This document shows positions 1,622 to 63,400 of a DNA stretch of 64,000 bases, in pieces; the stretch's first letter is position 1, and each line of letters begins with the position of its first letter. Both the position numbers and the translations under genes were made by a program. The notes under the pieces are model-generated. The model had not been told where the DNA came from. It worked only from the letters and a program-made list of their open reading frames with translations, and ran no database searches. The DNA comes from a virus, in the IMG/VR virus record IMGVR_UViG_3300025108_004223, positions 1-64,000 of that record; one strand, given 5' to 3'.

Positions 1622-1919
1622 AGAAAACATTTGGCATTTTACTTGTGATTACTGTCAAGGTTTTTGGAGTATAGCGACTATGGATGACTGGGAGCCTACA
1701 AACTTATATTGCACTCATTGTGGTGAACAAAATAAAAATGAAGGACATATTAGATTTGGAACCTCATCTTATACTAGAGCAGAAGATAGTTTTCAAAAAG
1801 AAATATGTTCATGTGGTCACAAAGTTATAGATTGCGATTGTGCACCAGGATGTAAATGTGGATGTAACAGACGTTACTTAGATTCCGAAACAAGTTTTGA
1901 TATGGAAAAATATACATGA
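1608..1919 (+). CDS. Small Cys-rich protein (two CxxC pairs and a metallothionein-like C-terminus)
   Basis: CDYC, CTHC, CSCGHKVIDCDCAPGCKCGC. It overlaps both neighbours. Confidence 0.6.
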   Translation: MNVNKENIWHFTCDYCQGFWSIATMDDWEPTNLYCTHCGEQNKNEGHIRFGTSSYTRAEDSFQKEICSCGHKVIDCDCAPGCKCGCNRRYLDSETSFDMEKYT

Positions 1920-3085
1920 CATATTCAACAGCATGTTCAAAGAGTTGGACAGACGTAAATGTAGATTTTAAACGAGGCACAGTAGGTCATTGTTGTAAGT
2001 CAGTGTATTATGACTTACCTAATGAATATACATCTAATTTTTTCACTAATAGTGAGCATATTCAAAAACGTAGACAAGATACTCTCAACGGCATTCAACA
2101 TCCAGATTGTCAAACATGTTGGAAAGATATTAAAAATGGAGTTACTCCGTTTAAGGATTGGATGAACGAATGGAAAAACTTTGACAGCGTTAAAATAGAT
2201 GAACCACAAGTTAATTACATTGAAGTTGATTTAGACAACACTTGCGATTTAAGTTGTTTATATTGCAGTGCTGATGCAAGTAGTAAGATTGCACAAGAAG
2301 AAGGTATTAAAGGCATTGATAAAACAAGACAAAAAGATATTGAAAATTTTACATATTGGTTAAAGAATACAGTTAACAATTCCAAAAGTCATATTGATAT
2401 TGCATTTTTAGGCGGTGAACCTACAGCAAGTAAATTATTTTACGAACTAATTGATTATATTGTAACATTAGATACTAGTAATGTCACAATACAAATAACA
2501 ACAAATTGTAACAGCAAAGCTCACTTATTTAAGAAATTATTAAATGCAATGGATAAATGTCAGTGTGATTGGCAAATTAATATTAGTAATGAAAGTTACA
2601 AAGACGATAGTGCGTTAATTAGATATGGATTAGATTGGGATAGATTCGAACAAAATTTATGTTCTTATGCCTCACATAAAAAAGTTAGATACATTAGTTT
2701 TGATGCTACTATGACTAGTCTTGCAATACCAACATTTACTAGATATATTCAATGGGTATTAGATACAATGGCAAACTATACTAAAAAATTCGGTATAATA
2801 GGAGATGCAGTATTTTGGCCAGGTGAGTTAGATGTAGCAATACTTCCAGAGTCTTTTAAACCCCATATGGACTCAGCAATACAATTAGTAAAAGAAAACA
2901 GATTGTCTAATTATGAAAACAAAAAAACTACTTTAACATTTCTCGAAGGAATAAAAACTCGCATTGGTTCTAACTACAAGGAAGATTATACAAATACAGT
3001 TGCACAGTTTTTAGTGCCAAAACAAAAGTATAAAAAGACAGATAAACTTATGAGATTAGTAGACTCACTAGGAGAAATAAAATGA
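1916..3085 (+). CDS. Radical SAM protein with N-terminal twitch/SPASM-like domain
   Basis: CDLSCLYC, FLGGEP, and N-terminal CSKSW...HCC...CQTCW. Confidence 0.9.
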   Translation: MTYSTACSKSWTDVNVDFKRGTVGHCCKSVYYDLPNEYTSNFFTNSEHIQKRRQDTLNGIQHPDCQTCWKDIKNGVTPFKDWMNEWKNFDSVKIDEPQVNYIEVDLDNTCDLSCLYCSADASSKIAQEEGIKGIDKTRQKDIENFTYWLKNTVNNSKSHIDIAFLGGEPTASKLFYELIDYIVTLDTSNVTIQITTNCNSKAHLFKKLLNAMDKCQCDWQINISNESYKDDSALIRYGLDWDRFEQNLCSYASHKKVRYISFDATMTSLAIPTFTRYIQWVLDTMANYTKKFGIIGDAVFWPGELDVAILPESFKPHMDSAIQLVKENRLSNYENKKTTLTFLEGIKTRIGSNYKEDYTNTVAQFLVPKQKYKKTDKLMRLVDSLGEIK

Positions 3086-3309
3086 CACAAGACGATGTCT
3101 ATAGATTACAATATCTTGCAGGTATTATAGATAAGCAAGGTGATACTATAAAACCAACTGATGAATCCAACCTAAGTATTGTTGGAAGTGCTAAAGGTCA
3201 GTATATGCGTAAGCATAATGTTAAGCCAGGCACTGACGAGTGGTTCAAACTATGGTTCAGTAGACCAAAACTAACAGGTGAAAACCCTACACCAAAGCAA
3301 GGCGGATAA
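3082..3309 (+). CDS. Hypothetical phage protein
   Basis: ATGA overlap with the upstream gene. Contains RLQYLAGI. Confidence 0.6.
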   Translation: MTQDDVYRLQYLAGIIDKQGDTIKPTDESNLSIVGSAKGQYMRKHNVKPGTDEWFKLWFSRPKLTGENPTPKQGG

Positions 3310-3310
3310 C

Positions 3311-4861: not shown

Positions 4862-4866
4862 ACATA

Positions 4867-6935: not shown

Positions 6936-6936
6936 A

Positions 6937-8138: not shown

Positions 8139-8147
8139 GGATATAAA

Positions 8148-9368
8148 ATGTCCACTCCTAGTGACAACATAGTAAACAGATACAACAAATCGTTCTGTAT
8201 TAAACCTTTCACTGAAATATCAAATTCCGCAGTTGGACACAGGCAACTTTGTTGTAGAAGCGATACATTAATATACACAGGCGATGTTAATAGCTCATCA
8301 CTTACCGAAGACTTTTTTAATCATCCAAAAATGAATGAGGTTAGAAGAAAAATGCTCGCCGGTGAAGAAGTAGAAGAATGTTGGATATGTGCCGACTCAG
8401 AAAAAGCAAGAGGAAAATCACACAGAACATTTGTAATGCAAGAGTTTGAAAGAATGGCTCCTAAACTAACAGATGAAATATTTCAAAATGGCAAAATAGA
8501 ATTAAAGTCACTTGATATACGTTTTGGGACCAAATGTAATCTAGCGTGTGTAATGTGTGGTCCTGGTAGCAGTAGTTTAATTGCAAAAGAAGAAGAAGAC
8601 GATGAGTTTCAATTAGTTGACTTAAACGACTTTTCATTGGATGCTATTAAAAAACATTCTGAAGGTATTGTGTTATTTAAAACAACTGGTGGCGAACCTA
8701 TGTTGTTACCTGCATATAAGAAAACACTTGAGTTTTTTGTAGAAAAGGGTTATGCAAAAGATATAGAGTTCACAACTATTACAAATGGCACAATTGATTA
8801 TAGTGACCTCATGCCACTAATGAATGAATTTAAATATTTTAAAATTAGTCATAGTATAGATGCAGCAGATCAATCATATGATTATGTTAGATGGCCAGGA
8901 ACAATGTCACGTATACAGCGTATACACCAGCGTATTGTAGAGAATTCTAAACAGTATAAAAATATAAGACTTGAATTTGGTGCTACTATACATGTATTAA
9001 ACGTAGATCAAGTAGTAAAGATTAGCAAATACTTATGTGAACTTGGACAGAATACTAAAAATAATTATGCAGTTGATATGGTGCATGAACCAGACTATAT
9101 GCAACCAGGATTAGTTCCAAAAAAAGTAATAGATGAATTAGAAGAAGAATACTATGCATGGGATAAGCCAAAAGGTTATCGCAGCGGACCTGAAATAATT
9201 GATTTTATTAAAGTTTTGCGTTATAATTATGAGAAAATAAATAGTAATAAGGAACATAAACAAGAGTTACTTAATCAGCTAGAAGCCAAAACAATATTTT
9301 GGAAAGCAAAAAGAAAACTTGATGTTCGTGATTATATTCCATACTACAAGGAGATTCGAACACAATGA
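8148..9368 (+). CDS. Radical SAM protein with N-terminal twitch/SPASM-like domain
   Basis: CNLACVMC, TTGGEP, and FCIKPF...LCC...CWIC. Confidence 0.9.
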   Translation: MSTPSDNIVNRYNKSFCIKPFTEISNSAVGHRQLCCRSDTLIYTGDVNSSSLTEDFFNHPKMNEVRRKMLAGEEVEECWICADSEKARGKSHRTFVMQEFERMAPKLTDEIFQNGKIELKSLDIRFGTKCNLACVMCGPGSSSLIAKEEEDDEFQLVDLNDFSLDAIKKHSEGIVLFKTTGGEPMLLPAYKKTLEFFVEKGYAKDIEFTTITNGTIDYSDLMPLMNEFKYFKISHSIDAADQSYDYVRWPGTMSRIQRIHQRIVENSKQYKNIRLEFGATIHVLNVDQVVKISKYLCELGQNTKNNYAVDMVHEPDYMQPGLVPKKVIDELEEEYYAWDKPKGYRSGPEIIDFIKVLRYNYEKINSNKEHKQELLNQLEAKTIFWKAKRKLDVRDYIPYYKEIRTQ

Positions 9369-9778
9369 GAATAGTATTAAAAAGATTAAGCACTAAAGAC
9401 TTATATAAATTAACAAGCATATTAGATTATGATACTGCTACATTGGCAAACATTGCTTGGCCGTTTGACAGAAGTGTCGCAATGCAATTTATTAATGATT
9501 ACAATACCTGGGGCGTTTGGATTAATCAAGATACACTAGTTGGAGCAGTTGAAGTAAAAGAAGATTTAGAAACTGCATATTTTATTAAAAAAGGCTGGCG
9601 TAACACAGGTATAGGCTCAAGAGCTATTGAACTATGTGTAGAAGAATTTGGCGATCAACAGTTATGGTGTGTTATTAATCCAGACAATAAAGCAAGTTTA
9701 AAAGTAGCACAAAAAGGTGGATTACGAGTTAAGTTTATTGATTCAGATAAAACAGACGTAATTACTGTTGTAAAATAG
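9365..9778 (+). CDS. GNAT N-acetyltransferase (RimJ/RimL-like)
   Basis: WRNTGIGSRA acetyl-CoA loop and INPDNKASLKVAQKGG motif. Confidence 0.75.
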   Translation: MRIVLKRLSTKDLYKLTSILDYDTATLANIAWPFDRSVAMQFINDYNTWGVWINQDTLVGAVEVKEDLETAYFIKKGWRNTGIGSRAIELCVEEFGDQQLWCVINPDNKASLKVAQKGGLRVKFIDSDKTDVITVVK

Positions 9779-9786
9779 AGAATGAT

Positions 9787-42519: not shown

Positions 42520-43042
42520 AGCAATCAGAGACAAATACTTTGGTGATAATTGGCAACCCAATTGGGATCATTATGATTATAGTGGTTGGGCTCTAGTTGA
42601 TAAAATAGATCCAGATGAAACAATATTAGACGTTGGATGTGGATTCAATTTATTTAAAGATGTCTTTGGTGACAGAGTATACGGCATAGATCCTGCAAAC
42701 AAAAAAGCAGACGAACTTGTGGGCATTATAGAATTTGAAACTGATAAGCAATGGGACGTAGCATTTGCTTTAGGTAGTTTAAACTTTGGCACAGCAAAAG
42801 ATGTTGAACCTCAAGTAGAAAAAACAATAAGTTTAGTTAAACCAGGCGGTCGTATTTACTGGAGGCAAAATCCAGGACTAGGTGATCATCCATGGAAAGG
42901 TGTAGAAGAAATACAGTTTTTTCCTTGGAGTATGCAACTTAACTACGAATGGGCAGACAAATATAAGTGTATAGTAGTTGAATGTAAATGGGATGCAAAT
43001 AGTGATAGAATCTATGCTGAATGGAAGAAATCAAGTGTATGA
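42512..43042 (+). CDS. Class I SAM-dependent methyltransferase
   Basis: ILDVGCGFN, VYGIDP, LVKPGGRIY. Confidence 0.75.
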   Translation: MDKAIRDKYFGDNWQPNWDHYDYSGWALVDKIDPDETILDVGCGFNLFKDVFGDRVYGIDPANKKADELVGIIEFETDKQWDVAFALGSLNFGTAKDVEPQVEKTISLVKPGGRIYWRQNPGLGDHPWKGVEEIQFFPWSMQLNYEWADKYKCIVVECKWDANSDRIYAEWKKSSV

Positions 43043-44031
43043 ACTGGCTAGATAAATTCGACAAGCTAAAAGTAGAAATAACCTCTCATTGTAATGCAAA
43101 ATGTCCTGGATGCACTCGAAACATAACAGGCGGCAAAAATCAACCTGATTTAAAACTAAAACATATGCCATTTGAACTATGGGAACGTATCATGCACGAA
43201 GATACAAAGGGCATGAACATAGTTGAGGTATTGTTTGATGGCACAGTTGGTGATTTTTGTATGAATCCTAAAGCTATTGATTTTATTAAAACGGCACATG
43301 ACGCACACCCTGATATGTTTTTACAAATTAATACAAACGGTGGTGCCAGAACAGAAAAATGGTGGGCAGAACTCGGCGAGGTTATTGCTGAAATTCCACA
43401 TAGAGTAAACTTTGCAATTGATGGATTAGAAGATACACATCATATACACAGACGTAATACATCATATGATATAGTTGTGCGTAACATGAAAGCATTTATT
43501 TCAACTGGTGGGAATGCTAATTGGATATTCACATACTTTGATCATAATTTACATCAATACAAAGAAGCAGAAAAACGTGCAATAGATATGGGGTGCTATT
43601 GGTTCCAAACTAGATGGAGTTGTATTCCTGGCGAAGATTTAGATACAAAAACAGATACAGAAGAATATAAAATTGGAACAGAACATATTTACGAACACAA
43701 AGAATATATGAAGCATACAAGAATTCTGAAACATATGCAACCAGAATATGATGAAGAGTCGCATATATGCCCTGCATATGCTACTTCACAGATTACCATT
43801 GACTTTCGTGGTATACTTTGGCCGTGTAGTTACATATATTCAACCGAAGTTAGAACTAGAGAATGGGCAAGTCCGTTTCGTAACGAAATGCAACACCCAG
43901 GTGAAACAATAAGTTTACATAAATATACATTATCTAATATACTCACTAATACATTTTTTAAAGACCAATTACCAGATGTTATTGCTAATAAAAAGCTAAG
44001 TATATGCAATATGTGGTGTTTTAACGACTAA
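43039..44031 (+). CDS. Radical SAM protein with C-terminal SPASM/twitch
   Basis: CNAKCPGC; CPAY...IDFRGILWPC...CNMWC. Confidence 0.88.
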   Translation: MNWLDKFDKLKVEITSHCNAKCPGCTRNITGGKNQPDLKLKHMPFELWERIMHEDTKGMNIVEVLFDGTVGDFCMNPKAIDFIKTAHDAHPDMFLQINTNGGARTEKWWAELGEVIAEIPHRVNFAIDGLEDTHHIHRRNTSYDIVVRNMKAFISTGGNANWIFTYFDHNLHQYKEAEKRAIDMGCYWFQTRWSCIPGEDLDTKTDTEEYKIGTEHIYEHKEYMKHTRILKHMQPEYDEESHICPAYATSQITIDFRGILWPCSYIYSTEVRTREWASPFRNEMQHPGETISLHKYTLSNILTNTFFKDQLPDVIANKKLSICNMWCFND

Positions 44032-50676: not shown

Positions 50677-51033
50677 CTAATTATTGCTACAGTTGTTGAC
50701 ACATACCTGAGGCGGCTTGTCACTTTTCCACCCATCATAGTATATGTAAGTTTGAAATATTTCATGTGCAATAATTTCATCAAGACTATGATATTCCAAA
50801 TTATTCCAGTTAGGATCATTATTCATTAGGTCCATAATCCTTTCATCTTCAACAAATGCAATAGAGTCGTATTCTTTAACACGACCTTCGTTATTGTAAA
50901 CGTCTCGTAGAGTCCATGCATTACTGAAAAAGCAACAAGGCCATACTTTATTATCTGGAGTTACTTCCCAACGTCTTATATTTTGGATATGATCCATTGC
51001 CTTGCATTTGATATTACATTTAGACATAATCAA
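50677..51033 (-). CDS. Stand-alone SPASM/twitch-like Fe-S domain protein
   Basis: CNIKCK...VTPDNKVWPCC...CVNNC, with no CxxxCxxC. Confidence 0.65.
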   Translation of the reverse strand: MIMSKCNIKCKAMDHIQNIRRWEVTPDNKVWPCCFFSNAWTLRDVYNNEGRVKEYDSIAFVEDERIMDLMNNDPNWNNLEYHSLDEIIAHEIFQTYIYYDGWKSDKPPQVCVNNCSNN

Positions 51034-51674
51034 TATCCTATATTAATTCCATTGTCGTCACATAATTTATTACATGCCTGCATATTTTCATCAGTTATTA
51101 ATCCATATGATCTATTATTGTAACGGAATATAATTCCAATATTCATATTGTCTGCTATTTGTTTAGCCAGTGTAACCTGTTGCCAATTCCAATCAAATAT
51201 TATATACAACCATTGTGCATATCCACCATTGTCAGCAAATGCTTTCATGTTGTTTATTGCACGTTCAAAATCAACACCTTCTCTATACAACCAATTAACA
51301 TCATGTGTAGCGCCATCTATTGCAAAATCTATCTTTAATCTTTTTTTATACTTTTTTGCAATCGACTCATACCAACCAGGTGCTCGTAACCCACCATTTG
51401 TTGATATAGTAACCATTGGTGCATAATTTAATGCGGTTTCGATAAAGTTATCAACTTGAGGATGCATCATAGGATCGCCAAACTCACCACAAAATTCAAT
51501 ATCATCAAGCTCTACATTTTTAAGATTAGCAAGTCTTTTTTCAAACACATTTAAGTCCATGTGCTTTAATTCAAGCCATGATTCTTTCTCACCTGTGTCC
51601 TCGTTTGTTCTAGCACAACTTCTACACTTAGCTTGGCAATAAGTGGTTAATGCAAAGTCAAAAGAATGTTTCAT
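51030..51674 (-). CDS. Short radical SAM protein lacking a SPASM domain
   Basis: CQAKCRSC, FCGEFGDP, STNGG, AIDG. Confidence 0.85.
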   Translation of the reverse strand: MKHSFDFALTTYCQAKCRSCARTNEDTGEKESWLELKHMDLNVFEKRLANLKNVELDDIEFCGEFGDPMMHPQVDNFIETALNYAPMVTISTNGGLRAPGWYESIAKKYKKRLKIDFAIDGATHDVNWLYREGVDFERAINNMKAFADNGGYAQWLYIIFDWNWQQVTLAKQIADNMNIGIIFRYNNRSYGLITDENMQACNKLCDDNGINIGY

Positions 51675-52306
51675 CTTTCACTCAGATGATCCCTTATAAA
51701 CAAATAGCTATCATCTGTTAACTTGGCATTGACTACTAACCAAATACTATCATAATTAGTGCTACAATTAAATAATGTGTGTGCTTTTGTAGTATTCACT
51801 ACGTAACATTGTCCAATCTCAAAGTTAAGTGTTGTATCTTCTAACATAAATCTACAATGAGGCGCATTACAATTTTCTATACCCCATATAAGTCTAAAAC
51901 TAGTTTGCTCACCAAACACATGATCTCTGTGTGGCGGGAAGTATCCGCCTGGTGGCAGTTTTAGGAAGTGCGATCTAACACTCCAATCTAACATAGGACC
52001 CATTACTCGTTGTAGCTCAGAGCTGGTATTATATAATTCTGTAGGAACATTAAAATCATCTTCATGCCATGTTGTTCCATGTTCACGGTTATATTGTCTT
52101 AAACTATCTAATGCAGGACCTGGTCCACATTTGCCACGTTCGTTGAGAACACATAAGCCGTCACGTTTAATCCAATCTTTGTGTGGATTATATTGAGACC
52201 ATTTGTCGTTGTGTGGTGTAACTTCATGTAGTAATTGATCTACATCAAATTCAGCATCGATTTGATAAAAATCACCCCACTGCGTAATTTTTGAAATGTC
52301 ATTCAT
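51671..52306 (-). CDS. Asp/Asn beta-hydroxylase-like 2OG-Fe(II) oxygenase
   Basis: LPPGGYFPPHRD ... NTTKAHTLFN. Confidence 0.78.
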   Translation of the reverse strand: MNDISKITQWGDFYQIDAEFDVDQLLHEVTPHNDKWSQYNPHKDWIKRDGLCVLNERGKCGPGPALDSLRQYNREHGTTWHEDDFNVPTELYNTSSELQRVMGPMLDWSVRSHFLKLPPGGYFPPHRDHVFGEQTSFRLIWGIENCNAPHCRFMLEDTTLNFEIGQCYVVNTTKAHTLFNCSTNYDSIWLVVNAKLTDDSYLFIRDHLSER

Positions 52307-52315: not shown

Positions 52316-53152
52316 CTACTTGTCGTGTGTGTTGACATAGTTCTGCTTGAACGATGTCTGTGGATTCTCTCCGCCTTTTACACGTTTGTCTAGATGTTTT
52401 ACATATTGAATCATGCCATGATCAGAAAATGAATCTAACCTGCCTTTAAACAATCCTCTGATAATACCACGCCATACGTCTTTGATACGTTGCCAGCCTG
52501 TTAGGTTTCTTAAGTTTCCATAGTGATTAAAGTATTGACAATGTCCATGATGAACATAACCAAATATTAAGAATGGAACTCTAGTTACTATATCTGCATT
52601 ATTAACCCAACGATAATGAGTGAATGGAAAGTTTTCAATATACGTTCTCCACCCAACTCTAGGTGAGCCAAATGTATGTAGTTCTTTTGGATTATTTAAA
52701 GCACTGTCACCTCTACAACGGCTTGCTACTATAGTTGACATAGCTGCACCAAGTGAATGTCCACAGAACCAAATACTACGTTTTGATTGCTCTCTAATTA
52801 GGTCTTCTTTAATTAAATCCCATAATTTATCTACTTCGCCTTTAAATCCACCATGCACTCTGCCTATTGTTTCTGCAACAACTGGAAATGCTCTAGCGTC
52901 TGCTTTAATATCATTGTATTGTGTTGGCTGTGTGCCTCTACATGCAATCACTAAATCATGTTTATTCATAAAGCGATATGCTTCTGCGCCATCTATATTA
53001 TAAAACTCAACAGTAGTGAATCCTAATTTCCTTGCTAGTTTTTTAACCTCAGTTACTTTATAATAAGCAATCTGGGCCAGTTCTGCAAATAATAAGGCTC
53101 TTTTGTTACCTGACAGTAATTCTATTTTATTTGTTAGTTTTATGCTAAACAT
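52316..53152 (-). CDS. Class 3 lipase
   Basis: IACRGT, CGHSLGAA, TFGSPRVG, VNNADIVTRVP. Confidence 0.88.
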   Translation of the reverse strand: MFSIKLTNKIELLSGNKRALLFAELAQIAYYKVTEVKKLARKLGFTTVEFYNIDGAEAYRFMNKHDLVIACRGTQPTQYNDIKADARAFPVVAETIGRVHGGFKGEVDKLWDLIKEDLIREQSKRSIWFCGHSLGAAMSTIVASRCRGDSALNNPKELHTFGSPRVGWRTYIENFPFTHYRWVNNADIVTRVPFLIFGYVHHGHCQYFNHYGNLRNLTGWQRIKDVWRGIIRGLFKGRLDSFSDHGMIQYVKHLDKRVKGGENPQTSFKQNYVNTHDK

Positions 53153-53156: not shown

Positions 53157-53165
53157 GTATTTATA
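53157..53165 (-). promoter_or_regulatory. T4-like late promoter consensus upstream of the lipase
   Basis: Minus strand TATAAATAC immediately before the ATG at 53152. Confidence 0.55.
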
Positions 53166-54282
53166 CTCTACGCTTAGGTATCTTGCTATCAGCACTACTA
53201 ACACATGCTTTTGTTGTGCATAATGTAGGTTTATCAAACAATTTAAAGCCGGTTTCAATATTACCTAACGGTTGATCACCACAACTATAACTACGTTTTA
53301 TACTTCCATCTGGCTCTCTAATAATGATACCTTGGTATCCACTGTTACACATCCAGCCTTTGAAATTGTTAAAATCAAATGCATTAAAACGTTCTGCTTG
53401 GTCCATATACCATTTCTTGCCTTGTGAGTCTGTAAACTCTACTTGCATGTGCCATGGAACACTTGCATCATTTCTGCCTATTGTATAATCTGGAATTTCA
53501 AATTTAGGTTTAGGACGTTTAACTACCCTTGCTTCTGCAGCCTTTTGCTCTGTATAACTACGCTGTGGCATTCCATTGTGTAATTTTGCTTTCATTTCAT
53601 CTGTGTAACCCTCAACAACTTTACTTGCTGTTGGATCACTTTGTGGTTTGAGTGTTACGTTAATACCTTGCTTGTGAAAGAACAATGCATTATCATAATA
53701 CAAGTCAAATACTTCTGGAACCATAACCATGTTAATAGTTACCTGCACATCATGTTGTTGACATAATACTAATTTGTCTGCAAGGTCTTGCATCTTCTCT
53801 GGAGTATCAACATGCTCTACGTGTAAACTACATGTGATACTTGCTCTGTGAAAATGACTTGCATAGTCAACATATGTTTTAAACCATTTTATAGGTCTAC
53901 TACAATTGCTTGTCATGTGTATACTTGTATAGTTTGTGTTATGCACATCATCTGCTAAATGTTTTAGCATGTCTAAATAACCCGGATGGAACGTAGGCTC
54001 ACCTCCACTTAAACTAAAGTGAAAACTATTGAATCCATTCTGTCTTGCTTGGCGTTTTATCTCGTCTATTGTTTTGAGATTGAGTTCGGTAGGACGGTGG
54101 TCTTTACGGTCGCTACGGGCATAAGGCCAACAATAGCTGCATCTGTAGTTGCAGAATCTTCCCAATAGCCAACTAACTGTAAACAAATCACGATACAACA
54201 AAGTCCGCTGACCAACTTGAACCAAGTCGTCAAAAGGTATTTTTGTGAAATCATAATTACTCCAATTCAGTTCTTCACTCAT
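53161..54282 (-). CDS. Radical SAM protein with C-terminal twitch-like Cys motif
   Basis: CNYRCSYC, LSGGEPT, CNSG...C...C....C. Confidence 0.9.
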   Translation of the reverse strand: MSEELNWSNYDFTKIPFDDLVQVGQRTLLYRDLFTVSWLLGRFCNYRCSYCWPYARSDRKDHRPTELNLKTIDEIKRQARQNGFNSFHFSLSGGEPTFHPGYLDMLKHLADDVHNTNYTSIHMTSNCSRPIKWFKTYVDYASHFHRASITCSLHVEHVDTPEKMQDLADKLVLCQQHDVQVTINMVMVPEVFDLYYDNALFFHKQGINVTLKPQSDPTASKVVEGYTDEMKAKLHNGMPQRSYTEQKAAEARVVKRPKPKFEIPDYTIGRNDASVPWHMQVEFTDSQGKKWYMDQAERFNAFDFNNFKGWMCNSGYQGIIIREPDGSIKRSYSCGDQPLGNIETGFKLFDKPTLCTTKACVSSADSKIPKRRV

Positions 54283-54294: not shown

Positions 54295-54855
54295 CTAATC
54301 ATGCTGTAATGGATCTACGCTCAGTTCATTAACTGATAAGTGTTCGGGCATATCAATTACATATTCTATTAAATCTACTGCTTCGTCTAGTGTCATTGTT
54401 TTACGTCCTGGGTGTTTATGTGCATGGTTCTCTAATGTGCCAAATGTAACATAACTTACCTTAGGACCACCTTGCCAAATGCTTTTTAAACCCATTGCAT
54501 TGCTTGTGCTACGCAAGGCCTTTTTTTCTTGTTGATAAAGCCAATCGCTACCCTTTGTAGCTCTGTCAGTTGTAGAGCTTAAATTGACTATATGTAGTCG
54601 TTTAAGGTGTCTTAAACTGGTTTTATAGACTACATCTAGTAGCAAGGTTTGATTGAAGTGCCATAATGCACTACAGTTAATAAAAACGTCAAAGTTAAGA
54701 GCCTTTTCTGCGAGCTTAGATCTATAGCCATTTTCAGTTAAATCGTAACCCCATGTGGTTCTACTAACAAATGTTGCATTAGGCCAGCGTTTAGCAATAG
54801 CACTTGCTACACCTTCTTCTGGATTGCCTGTGCATAGTATTGTTTTAGACATCAA
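54295..54855 (-). CDS. Short-chain dehydrogenase/reductase-like protein
   Basis: ILCTG...GVASAIA, FINCSA, IVNLSS, YQQEK (YxxxK). Confidence 0.7.
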   Translation of the reverse strand: MMSKTILCTGNPEEGVASAIAKRWPNATFVSRTTWGYDLTENGYRSKLAEKALNFDVFINCSALWHFNQTLLLDVVYKTSLRHLKRLHIVNLSSTTDRATKGSDWLYQQEKKALRSTSNAMGLKSIWQGGPKVSYVTFGTLENHAHKHPGRKTMTLDEAVDLIEYVIDMPEHLSVNELSVDPLQHD

Positions 54856-56071
54856 TGTATCCTTTAAACTCAGGACATGCTACAAGTAGTTCACCACGTT
54901 GTAATGTATCCATTTTTAAATTATAGTCTATAAACTGTTGCCATAGTTTGTCATGCCAATCTTCGGCTCTCATATACTTTAATGTGTCCATTACTTTGGG
55001 CCATTTCTGATAAGGCAGTAAACTTAGTATTGCTTTCTCTTTTAGTGCATTAGGTAGCACTCGTATATTCATGCAATCTGGGTGGTTAAGAATATTGAGA
55101 TAAACTTGGTCACCTTCTAACCCACGTGACTCTGCAAAATCTAACAGTTCATGTAACGCACATATGTTAAGGACTTGAACTGTGCAATGTATTTGAATAT
55201 CTACATTATCAAACGTGTTTAGCTCGTCGAAGTTTTTCTCTACTTTTTCCCAACTACTTGGATAACGGATGTATCTATCTCGGTCCCCTACTGCATCAAT
55301 ACTACAGTTAAGTTGGACCCGTTTAAACTTGCTCCAATATTCAATCATCTTAGGTGGAATGTTAGTTAGGTTAGTATTGTATTTTAATTTAATTCCACTC
55401 GCTAAATCGTTTTCAATACAGTAGTCTAGTAATTTATATTGTGATGTAGCAAGTGTAGGTTCACCACCCGTTAAATATATTTCTTGAACTGTATGTGCAA
55501 TGTCTTGAAAGTTTAGCCCAGTTTTCTTAAAGTCTGGCCATTCTGTCATTACATTCATAAATTTTAAAGTCTCACCTGTAAGCTCTACTGGTGGGTCTAA
55601 TTTTGCTGTTGGAATAACTTCGTTCCAATCTTTAATCCACATGCTACTTGCCCAAGGATTACACATTCTACATTTTAAATTACACAAGTTACCCAAACGT
55701 AAATCTACATAACGCACATCTACTGGAATCTCAGTATCTACCTTAACATCATCTGTCCACCATTTTTCATTAAAGCCTGCACGTGGACTGCGTATACCTG
55801 CATCTTCTTCACGGAAACATCTTACACACATTTCTGGTTTCTCACCATCAATAAGCTGTTGTCGTATTTTTGTGTATGTAGGACTGTTCCATACTTCTTC
55901 CAAATCGTTCTTATAAATTTTGTATGGTTTGTCTGTTTCAGGGTTTATAATTTGGTTTGTGTTAGGATTACTATTACAGCATACTCTAAACGAACCAGCG
56001 GCATTTGTTGCCACATGCATAAATGGTAATACGCAAAATGTTTTACTTGGTAATGGTTTATCTGTTTTCAT
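54845..56071 (-). CDS. Radical SAM protein with N-terminal twitch/SPASM-like domain
   Basis: FCVLPF...VCC...CVRCF; CNLKCRMC; LTGGEP. Confidence 0.9.
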   Translation of the reverse strand: MKTDKPLPSKTFCVLPFMHVATNAAGSFRVCCNSNPNTNQIINPETDKPYKIYKNDLEEVWNSPTYTKIRQQLIDGEKPEMCVRCFREEDAGIRSPRAGFNEKWWTDDVKVDTEIPVDVRYVDLRLGNLCNLKCRMCNPWASSMWIKDWNEVIPTAKLDPPVELTGETLKFMNVMTEWPDFKKTGLNFQDIAHTVQEIYLTGGEPTLATSQYKLLDYCIENDLASGIKLKYNTNLTNIPPKMIEYWSKFKRVQLNCSIDAVGDRDRYIRYPSSWEKVEKNFDELNTFDNVDIQIHCTVQVLNICALHELLDFAESRGLEGDQVYLNILNHPDCMNIRVLPNALKEKAILSLLPYQKWPKVMDTLKYMRAEDWHDKLWQQFIDYNLKMDTLQRGELLVACPEFKGYIDV

Positions 56072-56191
56072 TATTTTTAGTTTTTTGACCTTTTCCCGAT
56101 AGGTATTTTACAGTAGTTGGTTGACCAAATACTTTTATATATAATCGTGTAAAAAAAGCTTCTATCTTGCTCATAACATTATTATTTATTT

Positions 56192-57163
56192 TTAAATAAA
56201 ATCCTGATAGTTTGTTCCATGTATTTTATCCATAATTTTACTTTGTTCTATCAATGTCTTTCTTAGTATTCCATCTTGCATAGCATCTGGCGACATAAAT
56301 GCTGGGCTAATTACTGGTGTTGATTTATACCAGTTAATTTTATTATCCTGGCACCAAGTTATTATCTCATCTAAATTGTTACGGTTAAAAACCATTGGTA
56401 ATACTGTAACTGTTAGATTTGTATTCTTAGGTTTGTGCTTATTAAATATAACAGTGTTATTGCTTGTTGTCAACCAACTTGAACCAGGTCGTATATATTC
56501 ATATCTGTCACCTACTGCTTCTATGCTTATGTTAATATAGACTTGCTTAAATTTCTCAAAGTAATGATTCCATGCAGTCATGTCATGGCTTCCATTTGTT
56601 ATTAGATGTAATTCAATTGCTGGTGCTACATCTTCATCTATTAGTCGTTGTATAATCTTTTTTACTTGTGGTATCATAAATGGTTCACCACCTGTAAACT
56701 TTACAATTTTTGCATCTAACATAAGATGACTAAACTCTAATGATTGTTTAACCCAACCTGTATCTTTTAATTTGTCAAATTGAGGGTGCCAATTCTCTTG
56801 TTGATTTTCTTTAATTATTTTTGCCCATGTGCTACTGCTTGTTTGATTACACATTCTGCATGCAAAGTTGCAAGTGTTGTTTATTTTTAGGTCCCAATGC
56901 TTAATCCCTACTTCGTTCTCAAACTGCTCGTTATATTTCGTGCGTAAACTTTGTCCTGTTAGTTCTTCGCTTAATTTACATTCAGCACATTCGTTTAGCC
57001 ATTCTGTTTCGCTACGCTTACTCCATTCAGCATGACGTGTTTCCCAATCGTCATCCCAATATAAATTCTTTGTTCCTCTTTTTACCTGAAATGCACAACA
57101 AGGTCGCACTGCTCCAGTAGGTCCTATTGTTACACCGTTTTTAAATATCGAACATCTTGGCAT
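56192..57163 (-). CDS. Radical SAM protein with N-terminal twitch/SPASM-like domain
   Basis: CSIF...PCC...CAEC; CNFACRMC; FTGGEP. Confidence 0.9.
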   Translation of the reverse strand: MPRCSIFKNGVTIGPTGAVRPCCAFQVKRGTKNLYWDDDWETRHAEWSKRSETEWLNECAECKLSEELTGQSLRTKYNEQFENEVGIKHWDLKINNTCNFACRMCNQTSSSTWAKIIKENQQENWHPQFDKLKDTGWVKQSLEFSHLMLDAKIVKFTGGEPFMIPQVKKIIQRLIDEDVAPAIELHLITNGSHDMTAWNHYFEKFKQVYINISIEAVGDRYEYIRPGSSWLTTSNNTVIFNKHKPKNTNLTVTVLPMVFNRNNLDEIITWCQDNKINWYKSTPVISPAFMSPDAMQDGILRKTLIEQSKIMDKIHGTNYQDFI

Positions 57164-57890
57164 AATTTTTGTTTACTATTTTCTTAAATTCATATGATGG
57201 TCCACCATCGAATATCATATGTATACGTGGTTCGTCACTGCGATTCCATACTGCATGATAATGACCAGTGTTTATTTTTATTGCACGACCTGGAGCATAT
57301 GGCATAGCGCCGTAATCTTGTATGACTAGTTTACACCCATCTGGATTATTAATAGCAACGTTAGTTGCTCCTAGCCCTGTTATTCGATCTCTGTCTGTAT
57401 GCGGCCTAATCCATCCGTTTGGTAGCAGGGCCATAAATCTAACACGACTAAAGTTTTCGTATAGCATTTCATCTTGCATCCACTCTTTAGTAATTGGTGT
57501 ATATCTGCTAATATCTGTCCAGTCACTTAATTCATGTTCTGCTTCGTCTGGCATTCCATAATCTTCTGGACAATTAGTATGCACACTACTCATACCATGC
57601 ACACATAAACTTAACCAGCCGCCGCCACTGTTTGCTCTGTGTAAACTAAAGCATTCAGTTTCTAGCAAGTGTATTGCTTCTGCATGTATTTCTTTCCATG
57701 GCACATTAATATCTGGTAATGTTACCCAAGGAACACGTGTGTTGTCCATTATGTCGTTAATTTCATCTGCTATAATTTGTTGTTTATCAGCATCAGCAGG
57801 ATTAGTATTTTTATTTTCGTGTTCGTAGAACCAATCTTTTGCCTCTTCGTCAATTTCTTCCCAATATGCTAATCGTTTATAAGTTTCCAT
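57141..57890 (-). CDS. Asp/Asn beta-hydroxylase-like 2OG-Fe(II) oxygenase
   Basis: LLPNGWIRPHTD ... NTGHYHAVWNRSDEPRIHMIFD. Confidence 0.82.
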   Translation of the reverse strand: METYKRLAYWEEIDEEAKDWFYEHENKNTNPADADKQQIIADEINDIMDNTRVPWVTLPDINVPWKEIHAEAIHLLETECFSLHRANSGGGWLSLCVHGMSSVHTNCPEDYGMPDEAEHELSDWTDISRYTPITKEWMQDEMLYENFSRVRFMALLPNGWIRPHTDRDRITGLGATNVAINNPDGCKLVIQDYGAMPYAPGRAIKINTGHYHAVWNRSDEPRIHMIFDGGPSYEFKKIVNKNYAKMFDI

Positions 57891-59372
57891 TTAAAATATC
57901 CCCGGTAATGTTCTCATATTTTTATACTCGTAATATTCACCGCCCGGTGTATCACCTGAAAAATATATAGTTTTGTTATTTTGCAATAACTCATTGAATA
58001 GATCAATGAATGCCACTTGAGCATCAAAGTCTGGTGAGTTAATATAGTTAATCTCATATTGCCATATATTACTTAGTTGCAATAATGCTTTACAATCTTT
58101 GCCTATTAACTCGCTTAAACGTTTCCATTCTTTTACTATATCAATTTTAATAAACTGATGATCAAGTGTTTTAATAAAGTCCCAATGCTCTAGCCATTCT
58201 TCTTCATTCTTATAACTTCTAATAAAGTCTAATGCATTTTCTTCATCATACCAAATAAATTCGTCACTTGGTAATCCTAGATCTGTAATAACATGGAAGT
58301 TATCTTTATAAAATTTTGGAAAGTCTTTACCATCCCAATTTTCTAATAGGTGTTTTGTCCACCCAATTCCAAATGGGCTAAAGTCTGTCCATAATATACG
58401 TTTTATTGTATCACGTTGATGGCTAATATGTTTAAATTGATGTAGCCCGCTACAAGGAGCAACAAGTGTGTCAATTCCTAATGGGTCACCTTGTGGCACC
58501 ATTTCTGTATTAGTAACATACATGATGTGTGTATCCATGACCTTGTATTGAAATAATTCACGCTTGTCATTATTTACTAAATTATATCCATAACTACGAC
58601 TCTCGTCAAGACTAAGTCTTGTGTTAAAGTCATAATCAAAAAACCATTCTTTTGTAAATTCTAAATCATCTTCTACATAACAACATATCTTATGTTTACG
58701 TATATCATAATCTAAGTTATGTATTGTTAACCCATTTAAAAATGCTAACGGAAATAATGTATTAAAAAAGTCATCATTAAAATCTTCTGGCTTATCAACT
58801 AGTTTCCATTGGTGGCCGGCCAACACTGCATCTTTGGCAGATACCCACATTGGAGTATAATCGTCATGCATGTGTTCAGCTGATGATCTATAACTTGGAT
58901 GTTGTTGCAATTGATCGCCAATGTTCTCTAAACTTTCAAAATGTGCTAACAAAGGTTCGAATGTTTTAAGGTTAAGAACAATACATTGCTCGTGCCATTG
59001 TGGAGCATCTGTGCCACGTTGTAATATATGTCCTGCAGCTAACCAATTAGTTTCGTTCCATTTGTTATCTATTGCATTTATTACTTCTTCGTCAAACTCT
59101 GTTTCACCTGGCCAATTTCCATCAAACCAAATCACAGCATTTTGATATCCGAGAATACATAGATGTCTGATAACATCTCCAAAAAATCCTTGACTATATC
59201 TATCACAATGCAAGAAAGAATATTCTGTGCTATTGTTAATATTGATTTGCATAAGTTTTTTCAGTTTGCCTGCATAAGCATCTTCATCTTTTAAAGCAGG
59301 ATGTAATACTTCATTGAAGAACACATGAACTATCTTATTATCTTTTAACTCTGGTTTTAATTTTAAATACAC
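57891..59372 (-). CDS. Two-domain unknown protein (paralog A)
   Basis: Shares ordered blocks with 59372-60826: GY..A..WF.G.WP, W..AG, Y..NTE, W.DF, W.G.DFP, SNI..Y. Confidence 0.6.
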   Translation of the reverse strand: MYLKLKPELKDNKIVHVFFNEVLHPALKDEDAYAGKLKKLMQININNSTEYSFLHCDRYSQGFFGDVIRHLCILGYQNAVIWFDGNWPGETEFDEEVINAIDNKWNETNWLAAGHILQRGTDAPQWHEQCIVLNLKTFEPLLAHFESLENIGDQLQQHPSYRSSAEHMHDDYTPMWVSAKDAVLAGHQWKLVDKPEDFNDDFFNTLFPLAFLNGLTIHNLDYDIRKHKICCYVEDDLEFTKEWFFDYDFNTRLSLDESRSYGYNLVNNDKRELFQYKVMDTHIMYVTNTEMVPQGDPLGIDTLVAPCSGLHQFKHISHQRDTIKRILWTDFSPFGIGWTKHLLENWDGKDFPKFYKDNFHVITDLGLPSDEFIWYDEENALDFIRSYKNEEEWLEHWDFIKTLDHQFIKIDIVKEWKRLSELIGKDCKALLQLSNIWQYEINYINSPDFDAQVAFIDLFNELLQNNKTIYFSGDTPGGEYYEYKNMRTLPGIF

Positions 59373-60826
59373 TATTCTAATCCTATTCCTCTATTATCTG
59401 TTGCACTAAGAACAACATTTGCTGGACACATTAAATCATTATCGTTTATATCAGTTCCACTGAACCAACTATCTTCGTGTGTGCTACACACTTTTTCTAT
59501 CATTTCTATAAAACTTTTTTCTAATGCAAAAGGTTTTGCCATTAGCTTTGGTGTGATATAACTATAAATATTACTACTCCAAAATAAAGTCTTTTTATTT
59601 TTTATTTGCTTAAACATTTCAGTATGTTTGTAAATTAAATCTACATTGAAATATTGATGTTCGCATTGTTTTACTTTGTTCCAAAATTCTAACCATTTAA
59701 CTGGTCCGTCAAAATAATCAATTACTGTTGACCAACGCTCGTGTGCCATTGAACGCAATCTATCATTACAACCAGGATGTGCATGAACCCACTTATCTAC
59801 CCATGCAGGAAAATCTTCTCCATTCCAATGCGTAATAGTATCACGTTTAAATTGCACACTATCTGCATCAAAATCAAACCATACAAAACTTGTATTCTCT
59901 GTCATTCCATACTTGTAAGCATAGTATAGAAGCTTAAATCCCGCCGTGCAGCCTACATATTGATCAAACTTAGTATCTAGTGCTTGCGGAGAAATACTTG
60001 GACTGCTAGGCTCTGTATTAACAAAATATATAGGACTAGTAGGTCCGTGTATCCTATTTATTAATCTGTTACCGGTATTAGAAACAACACTAGTGTCGTA
60101 ATTTTGTCCCATAATACCTTTTTCAAATTCAACAGAACCTATATGTGCTTTTGACATAAACACATGATCCATAAGTTTGTTTGATAATCCCCATACTGTA
60201 AGATTATGTATAAAACTCCACTGCACCCAATTTGCACTAAAATTATGTTGATTTATGAATTGTTTTTCGGTTGGTGTATCTGTCCAATCCCAATCTGGAT
60301 CAATATTAAGTCTATATTTGCTATCTTCATAATCTTTGTTTGAATCATAATTTACCCAGTCTGGATGATTTTCCGATACATAAAATGGACTTAGACTTTT
60401 ATTGTCATTCCACTTTGTTATGTTTATAATGATAAATGTTCTTGTAAAATATGGGTATACATTATCATCTGCTTGTAGTTGTCCTGCTAGTATCCATTCT
60501 GGATCTTCTTTATTGTATCTATCTATTTCATCCAGTAATGATAAATTAAATTCTTCGTCGTCTGGCCAAACTCCTTCAAACCATAAACATGCATACTTAT
60601 ATCCTAACTTACCCATTGCAGTTATCCATGTTGAATCATATTGATTGTATACATTTACAATACCGCCACGTAAATGATTATTACATTCAACGTCTTGTAT
60701 GATTCCTAGTTTTTGTTTTAATATAGGTGTGTTGTTAAGTTCTTTATCTAAAGGTAAAAATGCATGAACAATAGGCCATGCTATATCTACATGGCTATAT
60801 TCCCAACTTTGTTGACCTTGTTTCAT
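59372..60826 (-). CDS. Two-domain unknown protein (paralog B)
   Basis: Same blocks as paralog A; 1 nt stop/start overlap. Confidence 0.6.
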   Translation of the reverse strand: MKQGQQSWEYSHVDIAWPIVHAFLPLDKELNNTPILKQKLGIIQDVECNNHLRGGIVNVYNQYDSTWITAMGKLGYKYACLWFEGVWPDDEEFNLSLLDEIDRYNKEDPEWILAGQLQADDNVYPYFTRTFIIINITKWNDNKSLSPFYVSENHPDWVNYDSNKDYEDSKYRLNIDPDWDWTDTPTEKQFINQHNFSANWVQWSFIHNLTVWGLSNKLMDHVFMSKAHIGSVEFEKGIMGQNYDTSVVSNTGNRLINRIHGPTSPIYFVNTEPSSPSISPQALDTKFDQYVGCTAGFKLLYYAYKYGMTENTSFVWFDFDADSVQFKRDTITHWNGEDFPAWVDKWVHAHPGCNDRLRSMAHERWSTVIDYFDGPVKWLEFWNKVKQCEHQYFNVDLIYKHTEMFKQIKNKKTLFWSSNIYSYITPKLMAKPFALEKSFIEMIEKVCSTHEDSWFSGTDINDNDLMCPANVVLSATDNRGIGLE

Positions 60827-60947
60827 TTGATTGTCCTGTCTACTTCATATTCATCAATATACATAATTGCAAGTCCACCTGCATTACCTACTACTATCCC
60901 TAATAACAACGCAAGGAGCATAACAGAAAAAAATTGTAATGCACCTT

Positions 60948-62183
60948 TCATTTACTTTGTCTTTCGTTTTCTTTTGCTACTACATCCATACCCTCAAGTG
61001 GCATGTCCATATAATTTCTAATCATTTGTTTTAGGCTAGTATCTTGTTTATATCGTTCTTCTATATCACGTGTATACTTTCGCATACGAGCATAAATCAT
61101 ATAATCACTTTTATTGTTTTCCATGTATGTTGCAAACCTATTCATTTCAGGATGTTCTACTTCGTGGTGTCTTAACTTTTCAATAATAGCTTGCCTGTAT
61201 TCATTTTGCCACACTGCTGGTGACAAATACTTAGGTGTTTGCAATATGTTAGCAGTAATAAACTTTAGGTCAACTGGGCTATCTTTCCAAAACTGAAAGA
61301 ACTCTGGCATTTGATATATGTTGTGTGCTTGCACTGTAATACCAGCAGCAACATCAATTCCAGGTTCGTTGTTTAGTGCCATCATGTTGGCGTAAACTGT
61401 ATCCCAATCGCCGTCTTGTCTAATGTAGTTGTATACATCTCCAATACCATCCATGCTTACTTTTATATTTACGTGTTTAAATTCGTTCCATATTTTAATC
61501 AAGTCATATTTCTTAAATTTAATATAACTTAGGTTACTTGCATAACGCAAACGTATACGCTTCTTTGCTTCTGCAGGAATACCTTCCAACAAGTCGTAAT
61601 GTTCTTTGTTGATAATAGGTTCACCACCTGTAAACTGTAGTGTATGCACATGGTCCCATAGTTCAGGCCATTCATTTAAACTTGCAAACAAATCTGTTGG
61701 TCTTAGCAGTCTAGTTTCGTATCCATCTGCTTGATATTTTTTAAGTATGTCTAAGTCAGCTACACGCTTATAAGAACTATGTGTGCTACACATAATGCAT
61801 TTTAAGTTACAGAAGTTACTTACTTTAAGTTCTACCCAATAAGGCGCATTGTTAACGCTGTAATCGTTGTTTACGCTTATCTTATCTGCAAATGTATTCC
61901 AGTTGTCATGTTCCCATTGTTGACGGTTGCTAACGATTCCACTGTCCTCATTGTGCCAGCACACTGCACAGCGTTCCGGTCTTTCGTCATTTGCTAAGGC
62001 CCTTCTTAGCTCTTTATAGTTGTCGTTATTCCAGCTCTCAATTGCTGACTCGCCTGGGTTGTTCAATGGGATCTCTTGTGCTTCGCAACATGGAACCATG
62101 TCACCACCAGCACTGCCATAGATATGCATATACGGTAACATGCAAAAACTTTTGCTATTTTTGAGATCTTCTTTGTTAATCAT
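60948..62183 (-). CDS. Radical SAM protein with N-terminal twitch/SPASM-like domain
   Basis: FCMLPY...PCC...CAVCW; CNLKCIMC; FTGGEP. Confidence 0.9.
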   Translation of the reverse strand: MINKEDLKNSKSFCMLPYMHIYGSAGGDMVPCCEAQEIPLNNPGESAIESWNNDNYKELRRALANDERPERCAVCWHNEDSGIVSNRQQWEHDNWNTFADKISVNNDYSVNNAPYWVELKVSNFCNLKCIMCSTHSSYKRVADLDILKKYQADGYETRLLRPTDLFASLNEWPELWDHVHTLQFTGGEPIINKEHYDLLEGIPAEAKKRIRLRYASNLSYIKFKKYDLIKIWNEFKHVNIKVSMDGIGDVYNYIRQDGDWDTVYANMMALNNEPGIDVAAGITVQAHNIYQMPEFFQFWKDSPVDLKFITANILQTPKYLSPAVWQNEYRQAIIEKLRHHEVEHPEMNRFATYMENNKSDYMIYARMRKYTRDIEERYKQDTSLKQMIRNYMDMPLEGMDVVAKENERQSK

Positions 62184-63400
62184 TAGTAAGGTATATACTC
62201 TATTCTATCTTTATACTCTGCTTCACACAAAGTTTTTAATCTGCGTATGCATGGCTCGTTAAAATCAAAGCCACGTATTTTCCAAATGTGTTTTAGGTTA
62301 GCCAAGTAAGCCGCACTAAAATCTTCTACACCATTTGGCTTGCACAAGTCTTCTACTAGCTTCTTCATCTTGTTAACACGGTTGGGATTGATAACAGTTT
62401 CGTTATACTGATAACGAAATGCGTCTAGTAGTTTTTCTTTAAACCAATCAGGCCAGTGTGTAACACTAAGATTGTTTGGTTCGTATACTGTTTGTAGTAT
62501 AACATTATTTACTTTCTTTACATTGCGGGCCCAAACAACAAAGTCATATAGATATAGTATATTCATAACACTAATTGTGCATGCTATATTAACTTTAACC
62601 TTGTCTGGATACTGTTGCTTGAATGCTAACCATTTGTCTAATGTATCTTCTGTCTTTTCCCATGTGCTAGGATAACGTATCATGGAATTAAGTTCACCAT
62701 GTGCATCCATACTCATGCTAAGTGTAAGTTCCTTGAATTGGAACAATGCATCGTATTCTGCTTTCTTGGGCCACCATGTGCAATTACTAAATATTTCCAT
62801 TTGTATCTGTGGAGCCAATCCTGCGTCTGCTAATCTTACAACAAACTTCATAAACTGTGGATGTAGGAATGGTTCGCCACCTGTTACTTTCATATGCTTT
62901 AGATGTTTTAACGCATCTAAGTCAATCTCATCAAAGTTTACAACTTGATTCTTTTTTAGTTTAGCTATTAAATCAATTGCCGCTTGTGAGTTTTTGTTAA
63001 ACTTCAAGTAGTCGTCATCCCACTTGTGACTCCACTCTGGTCCACATGTTTGACAGGTCAAGTTGCATAGTCTACCCACTGTAATTTCTAAATACTCTAA
63101 ACGCACCTCATCAGTAAAGTCATTAAAGAACTCGTCTGCTTCAGTTCGCATGCTACTACCTTTGGTTTCCTCGTCTGCTTTACATTTATAACAACCTTCA
63201 TGCCATTCATTACGCATCATAGTTTCACGTATATCAGTGAACATCTCACCATACACGTTAACATGTTCCTTGTCGCTTTCTTCTAAAAATCTATCATGAA
63301 ATCTACAACATGGAGTTGTTGGAACTCCATGCATAATCATGCCTGCTTTAAAAGGATACGCACATGCGTTTTTAGGTAGTTTTTTTGACATTAGAGCCAA
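62183..63400 (-). CDS. Radical SAM protein with N-terminal twitch/SPASM-like domain
   Basis: CAYPF...PCC...CYKC; CNLTCQTC; VTGGEP. Confidence 0.9.
   Translation of the reverse strand: MALMSKKLPKNACAYPFKAGMIMHGVPTTPCCRFHDRFLEESDKEHVNVYGEMFTDIRETMMRNEWHEGCYKCKADEETKGSSMRTEADEFFNDFTDEVRLEYLEITVGRLCNLTCQTCGPEWSHKWDDDYLKFNKNSQAAIDLIAKLKKNQVVNFDEIDLDALKHLKHMKVTGGEPFLHPQFMKFVVRLADAGLAPQIQMEIFSNCTWWPKKAEYDALFQFKELTLSMSMDAHGELNSMIRYPSTWEKTEDTLDKWLAFKQQYPDKVKVNIACTISVMNILYLYDFVVWARNVKKVNNVILQTVYEPNNLSVTHWPDWFKEKLLDAFRYQYNETVINPNRVNKMKKLVEDLCKPNGVEDFSAAYLANLKHIWKIRGFDFNEPCIRRLKTLCEAEYKDRIEYIPY

Follow-up and report, generated by a model that had tools for sequence, protein, structure and literature searches.

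Why should a virus carry ten genes for radical S-adenosylmethionine (SAM) enzymes within 64 kb, and what would their products act on? We address this question for the first 64 kb (positions 1 to 64,000, referred to as the window) of the 126,762-bp IMG/VR record IMGVR_UViG_3300025108_004223, in which the ten radical SAM (rSAM) genes are named r01 to r10 in coordinate order and those elsewhere on the record r11 and upwards. The explanation that we consider best as a whole, and to which we give a probability of roughly 0.55, is that the ten genes encode intact rSAM enzymes of three architectures, which belong to old and separate subfamilies and would carry out distinct tailoring steps, probably on a sugar-type substrate.

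The record is approximately 35% complete according to CheckV, and hence the genome should be roughly 360 kb. The window encodes a T4-type DNA polymerase and a clamp loader, and the polymerase shares 50% identity with that of Sinorhizobium phage Phosso, 48% with that of Atu_ph07 and ≈44% with those of GAP32/Rak2-like jumbo phages. The 24 kb queried by megablast gave no DNA-level match to cultured phages, and no tRNA genes were found in the window.

Ten intact genes in three architectures

A sequence-only reading of the window had listed ten mutually divergent enzymes with a CxxxCxxC motif. All ten open reading frames (ORFs) are open and intact where that reading had placed them (the one given as 43039 falls inside the ORF 43021-44031), the motifs are preserved and no copy is decaying. 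The divergence is likewise borne out, with paralogues on the record being 18-36% identical. Together the ten proteins comprise 3,724 residues, corresponding to 17.5% of the window. Each has exactly one CxxxCxxC, while elsewhere on the record just three more ORFs of at least 60 aa contain this motif, all of them short (61-122 aa) and two overlapping larger ORFs on the opposite strand; with so few extra occurrences its presence in the ten is not due to chance. Moreover, all ten match Pfam PF04055, eight of them at or above the gathering score of 29.5 bits. The remaining two, r03 (19.5 bits) and r10 (27.2 bits), nevertheless reach 252.6 and 228.7 bits with the model NF033640 (N_Twi_rSAM; curated cut-off 170 bits).

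Seven of the ten proteins score above the NF033640 cut-off (referred to as N-twitch copies; scores in Table 1) and represent seven subfamilies that are 21-33% identical. In two others (class B) the Cys-rich domain is C-terminal, and the tenth is a singleton; these three, r04 (34 bits), r05 (29 bits) and r06 (51 bits), do not reach the cut-off. In the N-twitch copies an auxiliary Cys domain precedes the rSAM core: C13, C82 and C85 (r07 numbering) are invariant and C31 nearly so, the core residues C130/C134/C137 lie downstream, and in three copies Pfam SPASM matches fall at residues 13-89. As judged from the alignment, these four Cys residues would suffice for one auxiliary [4Fe-4S] cluster. Both GGE and CxxxCxxC are invariant in the ten N-twitch copies of the record (seven in the window and three outside it). 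The singleton r06 also has GGE, and in the class-B copies a conserved G-D-P occupies the corresponding alignment position.

The class-B gene r05 encodes the rSAM core only. A 118-aa ORF that overlaps it by 4 nt carries the detached C-terminal domain, with the pattern Cx3C..CC..Cx3C, and aligns with the C-termini of r16, r15 and r12. Since this split is kept in three related phages (G006, G007 and G009) and on a Bdellovibrionia chromosome, the pair is a natural two-gene enzyme rather than a product of decay. Weak similarity of the 118-aa ORF to the N-terminal twitch of r14 and r08 further hints, at the level of sequence, that the N-twitch family might have arisen by permutation via a split intermediate.

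The whole record has 16 NF033640-type matches, and with a QueE-like gene outside the window the number of rSAM genes is 17. This last gene (record positions 88356-89252, minus strand; L002:10356-11252) matches phrog_2076 with E 7e-50 and escaped both the NF033640 search and the CxxxCxxC pattern.

Age and spread of the subfamilies

The many copies within one genome could be taken to mean that they were recently duplicated in this phage and are diversifying under receptor or defence pressure; the sequence-only reading had spoken of an expansion and given such diversification as one of two options. The gene r01 would fit such a history, since it is present here and absent from the close relative G006 (r07 93% identical), where other genes (L217) occupy the syntenic stretch; it is the sole rSAM gene that differs between the two phages. 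The phylogeny, however, argues against it. In a 135-sequence tree no two of the ten N-twitch copies of the record are sisters, and each falls in its own subfamily together with orthologues from other phages. A 47-sequence IQ-TREE analysis agrees, and the approximately unbiased (AU) test rejects a single clade of the ten (delta lnL 2460, p 5.7e-5). Bdellovibrionota genes form the sister group of r07, r09, r11 and r14 with support of at least 93 (100 for r09; of these genes, r11 and r14 are found beyond the window), and with weaker support that of r10 and r13.

Sequence identities point in the same direction. Orthologues in related phages are 35-93% identical and thus far more alike than the paralogues, with r01 and r13 excepted (best 24-31%), and several copies have 35-64% identical orthologues in Bdellovibrionota chromosome clusters; several are nearer to such chromosomal genes than to any paralogue. 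For every copy the best phage or Bdellovibrionota match equals or exceeds the best paralogue, usually by far, save for r01 (24-26% versus 25%) and r13 (27-31% versus 28%), for which the set holds no clear orthologue; r01 also has a long branch in the tree. The ratio of non-synonymous to synonymous substitution rates (dN/dS) relative to G006 is 0.05-0.23 for all 13 rSAM genes having an orthologue there, at or below that of most neighbouring genes, and consequently there is no diversifying selection. Recent duplication in this phage is therefore extremely improbable; for the copies with orthologues it is refuted by the tree, the AU test and dN/dS, r01 being the exception. On the trees and identities, the ten genes are old, separately conserved subfamilies related through ancient paralogy. 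The other suggestion of the sequence-only reading, that each enzyme targets a different site or substrate, fits these data, with every copy in a conserved subfamily of its own and under purifying selection.

The same reading had regarded the number of rSAM genes as a property of the lineage, and in this respect it holds. Ten related IMG/VR records, all from uncultured jumbo phages, were picked via r07 homologues and their rSAM-type matches were counted in the same way as the 16 on the present record. Nine have 11-21 such matches and one has seven; a complete 328-kb genome with terminal repeats has 21, of which 14 are over the family cut-off. Five cultured phages, three chosen by polymerase likeness and two by an rSAM match, have one (Phosso), one (Atu_ph07), none (Vibrio phage 2.275.O), two (RsoM2USA) and six (Vibrio phage K566). 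The count is thus typical of the uncultured clade and far above that of cultured phages, for which it is not ordinary. In eight of the ten related records the polymerase is 58-93% identical to that encoded in the window, closer than that of any cultured phage, while the other two are fragments without a match. The high rSAM count is a trait of this uncultured jumbo-phage clade, with genomes of roughly 330-360 kb, and most copies are clade-wide. As the identity of r07 tracks that of the polymerase (polymerase/r07 pairs of 93/93, 67/75, 77/65, 59/52, 58/48 and 59/47%), our data suggest vertical inheritance of r07.

Individual copies differ in how widely they were recovered. For r07 there are >100 orthologue clusters at 50-95% identity, mostly from marine metagenomes, and a Tara Oceans contig shows synteny with its neighbourhood at 66% identity; a tblastn search with r07 matched only 4 of 50,697 phage records. 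The r02 orthologue in the complete phage G001 is 35% identical, and the r08 orthologues in G007 and G005 are short like r08 itself. A profile built from the ten paralogues retrieved 8,044 representative clusters at E ≤1e-30, and fusions of two or three domains are numerous among these. In two of the related phages, G004 (L109:7555-10107, minus strand) and G008, an 851-aa ORF consists of two fused N-twitch rSAM units.

The operon, its cellular counterparts and possible substrates

Six of the ten genes (r05-r10) lie in a minus-strand operon, in which 21 genes follow closely on one another (gaps of -23 to +17 nt) over a stretch that starts at 50677 and reaches at least 69099, and the cluster runs on to ≈76.3 kb of the record. 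The features of the window are collected in Table 1; further operon members encode an amidinotransferase-like protein (15 bits), an SGNH/GDSL hydrolase and a methylthioadenosine/S-adenosylhomocysteine (MTA/SAH)-type nucleosidase. The paralogous 493- and 484-aa proteins have no Pfam, PHROG or PDB match and in a protein atlas fall in viral hypothetical clusters only, and the pair is retained in the cluster core of distant relatives, including the Tara relative. A weak link also connects it with a Bdellovibrionia protein of 678 aa, whose gene has an Asp/Arg-hydroxylase gene on either side. The region downstream of the cluster does not encode tail fibres here; its genes have matches to an HNH-type protein, an ATPase, an exonuclease, QueE and phosphoribosyl pyrophosphate synthetase. 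No family 2 glycosyltransferase (GT2), SufE or IscU was found on the 127-kb fragment, but since this covers only ≈35% of the genome, the phage as a whole need not lack them.

Table 1. Radical SAM genes and other features of the window (2OG, 2-oxoglutarate; PLP, pyridoxal phosphate).
Feature	Position	Strand	Length (aa)	Matches and remarks
r01, N-terminal-twitch rSAM	1916..3085	+	389	NF033640 177 bits, PF04055 31.4 bits; most divergent copy
r02, N-terminal-twitch rSAM	8148..9368	+	406	NF033640 242 bits; dN/dS 0.17
UDP-glucose/GDP-mannose dehydrogenase-like N-terminal half plus ~330-aa C-terminal half	23409-25238	+	609	
r03, N-terminal-twitch rSAM	32842..34221	+	459	NF033640 252.6 bits; SPASM PF13186 at residues 27-89; dN/dS 0.07
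r04, class-B rSAM	43021..44031	+	336	PF04055 42.4 bits; CxxxCxxC at residue 24, C-terminal Cys-rich domain; dN/dS 0.12
r05 partner, detached C-terminal Cys-rich (twitch/SPASM-like) domain	50677..51033	-	118	Weak SPASM match
r05, class-B rSAM, core only	51030..51674	-	214	PF04055 33.3 bits; dN/dS 0.12
Asp/Arg-hydroxylase-like 2OG oxygenase	51671..52306	-	211	PF05118 22.7 bits, at threshold
Class-3 lipase-like hydrolase	52316..53152	-	278	PF01764 69.6 bits
r06, singleton rSAM	53161..54282	-	373	PF04055 51.8 bits; GGE; dN/dS 0.07
Protein accompanying r07	54295..54855	-	186	37% identical to Bdellovibrionales gene
r07, N-terminal-twitch rSAM	54845..56071	-	408	NF033640 373.4 bits; dN/dS 0.05
r08, short N-terminal-twitch rSAM	56192..57163	-	323	NF033640 181.8 bits; dN/dS 0.12
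Asp/Arg-hydroxylase-family 2OG oxygenase	57141..57890	-	249	PF05118 43.6 bits; syntenic in Tara relative and Bdellovibrionia
Two paralogous proteins	57891..60826	-	493 and 484	21% mutual identity, E 6e-20; cluster core
r09, N-terminal-twitch rSAM	60948..62183	-	411	NF033640 319.5 bits; dN/dS 0.13
r10, N-terminal-twitch rSAM	62183..63400	-	405	NF033640 228.7 bits; dN/dS 0.08
PLP-aminotransferase-like protein, C-terminal part in window	63391..64000	-	328	PF00155 23.3 bits; 43% identical to Bdellovibrionia cluster gene

The other four copies (r01-r04) are dispersed. The last 4 nt of r02 are shared with a GNAT acetyltransferase gene (9365-9778), r03 lies between a ClpP-like gene directly before it (32202-32840) and the clamp loader gene, and upstream of r04 are genes for dihydrofolate reductase (DHFR), ThyA, a phosphoribosyltransferase and a methyltransferase-like protein. 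Of the earlier proposal that rSAM genes sit among head, replication and nucleotide genes, the replication and nucleotide parts hold for r03 and r04, while no head gene was identified near 1916 or 8148. As the r03 orthologue in another phage (G009) lies within the main rSAM array, the dispersed copies probably belong to the same system as the cluster.

Relatives of the cluster occur in cells. The ten paralogues are too divergent for their alignment to serve as the seed of a genome scan; a scan of one genome per prokaryotic species with two peptide patterns gave 140 relatives, nearly all in Bdellovibrionota metagenome-assembled genomes (MAGs) on contigs of up to 3 Mb. In profile sampling NF033640 was above its cut-off in 45 of 201 Bdellovibrionota, 3 of 301 Pseudomonadota and none of 14 control genomes. 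Positive Bdellovibrionota genomes often have at least eight copies, and in each of five genomes 10-20 copies are arranged in tandem arrays. Of the gene families in the phage cluster, eight are found again at a Bdellovibrionia locus beside rpsU-dnaG-rpoD, i.e. orthologues of r07, r09 and r11, the split rSAM pair, an Asp/Arg-hydroxylase-type oxygenase and the 362-, 328- and 186-aa proteins, and a ninth, the 484/493-aa pair, has a weak match only. The r07 protein is 45% identical to a Bdellovibrionia gene product, and in Bdellovibrionia a 187-aa gene follows the r07 orthologue. At a Halobacteriovoraceae locus r15-, r14- and r06-like genes (43, 64 and 59% identical, respectively) are adjacent and flanked by GT2 glycosyltransferases, and a second array, from Bdellovibrionales, has genes for an Asn-synthase-like protein, a GT2, a UDP-sugar dehydrogenase and an ArnT/PMT-like protein next in line. 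Judged by sequence and gene order, the phage set is homologous, partly gene for gene, to these Bdellovibrionota chromosomal clusters.

Copies also appeared under other taxonomic labels. MAGs labelled Crocinitomicaceae, Gammaproteobacteria MED685 and Rickettsiales MED657 (1.2-3.2 Mb) have 7-14 N-twitch copies each on several contigs, and contigs of these MAGs (L119, L120 and L137; 33, 108 and 47 kb) carry a copy that is 52, 50 and 32% identical to r07; these look like misbinned jumbo-phage DNA. Outside Bdellovibrionota, a 1.27-Mb contig labelled Candidatus Parcubacteria (L135) has seven tandem N-twitch rSAM genes at 835-846 kb.

In the mechanism that we propose, the [4Fe-4S] cluster held by CxxxCxxC would cleave SAM, leading to abstraction of a hydrogen atom, a second cluster would sit in the four-Cys auxiliary domain, and the nucleosidase of the operon could clear inhibitory 5'-deoxyadenosine. 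The ten enzymes would perform successive, different tailoring steps on one substrate class during infection, which is probably a sugar-type molecule or a surface glycan. We infer the substrate, the chemistry and the cooperation of the dispersed copies with the cluster, and sugar tailoring is suggested by the cellular gene neighbourhoods together with the UDP-glucose-dehydrogenase-like gene of the phage.

Three other classes of substrate were weighed. The enzymes might modify peptides or proteins, either a ribosomal peptide or structural proteins of the phage or host, with the Asp/Asn-hydroxylase-type oxygenases acting on the same target. Characterised SPASM/twitch enzymes are mostly peptide maturases, SuiB, SkfB, CteB and anSME are among the top structural matches, the operon has two PF05118 oxygenases, and ORFs of 38 and 42 aa lie between rSAM genes. 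We nevertheless regard this as unlikely. None of the ten proteins reaches the cut-off of an equivalog model, and none comes near the cut-off of an NCBIfam peptide-maturase model (anSME, PapB, SCIFF and PqqE type; best 22-38 bits versus cut-offs of 265-520). Moreover, the N-terminus is a Cys-rich domain and not a peptide-recognition element, the short ORFs are conserved no further than G006 (the 38-aa one alone matches, with 48% identity), no conserved ORF for a precursor turned up, and the Bdellovibrionota arrays are packed, with no space for precursor genes and with glycan genes flanking them.

PF05118 is also the family of LpxO, the lipid A hydroxylase, and a class-3 lipase as well as SGNH/GDSL hydrolases are encoded in the cluster; with the ArnT/PMT-like gene that adjoins the Bdellovibrionales array and weak matches to a tetraether lipid synthase model and structure, this could mean that a lipid or lipid-linked molecule is tailored (remodelling of lipid A or membrane lipids) rather than a free sugar. 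However, every one of these matches is weak or generic and the cluster showed no gene for an acyl carrier or for lipid synthesis, which makes the idea quite unlikely. We consider it very unlikely that the enzymes serve to make or decorate a modified DNA base or nucleotide pool, even though nucleotide genes precede r04, the record has the QueE-like gene and r06 weakly matches viperin and MoaA. The best score of the ten with the prokaryotic viperin model NF038283 is that of r06, 41.8 bits versus a cut-off of 180, the QueE models TIGR03365/TIGR03963 give ≤22 bits versus cut-offs of 206-260, no MoaA cut-off is reached, and the homologous cellular clusters adjoin glycosyltransferases and not DNA-modification genes.

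Several points weigh against tailoring of a sugar-type substrate by one system of ten enzymes, our preferred explanation. Four copies lie apart from the cluster, to which we connect them by inference. As GT2 is lacking on the fragment, the glycan part leans mainly on the cellular neighbours and on weak Pfam matches (PLP 23 bits, amidinotransferase 15 bits). NF033640 is a catalogued sequence model with no member of tested function, the species scan is biased by its two peptide patterns (the profile sampling is independent of both), and the trees are unrooted and do not resolve the direction of phage-cell transfer. Finally, structure gives no lead: the AlphaFold2 model of r07 is confident (predicted local distance difference test, pLDDT, 89; that of r06 is poor, 58), and with it Foldseek/VIA returned a tie of generic rSAM core matches at Z ≈12, comprising SkfB, anSME, BlsE, viperin and the pyruvate formate-lyase activating enzyme (PFL-AE). 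None stands out, so no substrate or function can be transferred. The structural matches listed do not include BtrN, a twitch dehydrogenase of aminoglycoside pathways, and contain BlsE, DesII and AprD4 as generic core matches only; as to a 2-deoxystreptamine pathway, no inosose synthase was seen.

A more far-reaching and tentative view, possible in our opinion though we would not expect it to hold in full, is that the N-twitch family constitutes a toolbox of at least ten distinct, undescribed radical reactions, and that jumbo phages carry a complete multi-step pathway shared with predatory Bdellovibrionota, for making or altering an unusual sugar-type molecule that is located on the surface or associated with the virion. 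The split pair may then be a living intermediate of the domain permutation.

Relation to known systems

About one sixth of the window encodes oxygen-sensitive iron-sulfur enzymes under purifying selection. This is a large investment for a virus, and that it is kept implies an important step in infection. In the literature searched on jumbo phages and Bdellovibrio we found no study of such rSAM arrays, except for a passing mention by Nishimura et al. 2017 (PMC5332604) of a T4-like environmental viral genome with 12 rSAM genes. That genome is likewise from a large, uncultured marine phage with an unusual number of rSAM genes. The mention gives counts only, in the context of Fe-S cluster supply, with no family assignment, phylogeny or link to Bdellovibrionota (PMC5332604), and in the present case no SufE or IscU gene was found on the fragment.

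With anSME, SkfB, SuiB and CteB, and in the core with BlsE, viperin and MoaA, the N-twitch enzymes share a partial TIM-barrel core and an auxiliary domain with a Cys-ligated cluster, and matches to the SPASM/twitch structures have Z ≈11-12.6 over ≈200-220 residues. In those structures, however, the auxiliary domain is C-terminal whereas here it is N-terminal, identity is 14-19%, and the peptide-recognition domain is lacking here. The nearest catalogued family is NF033640, which seven of the ten proteins match over nearly the full model, with the Cys-rich domain followed by the CxxxCxxC core; the window differs in having seven deeply diverged subfamilies together with three rSAM proteins that are not members. 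Since this family is large (8,044 clusters) and has no tested member, the conserved phage operon is a compact entry to new radical chemistry.

The closest counterparts are the Bdellovibrionota arrays. They differ in that the cells have recent tandem duplicates (13 copies in one clade within one genome) and GT2, UDP-sugar dehydrogenase and ArnT-like neighbours that the phage fragment lacks, and they resemble the phage set in the eight families of a single locus, in individual genes that are 35-64% identical and in having the same split rSAM pair. So tight a link may indicate that genes have passed between predatory bacteria and giant phages, or might even point to the hosts of these phages.

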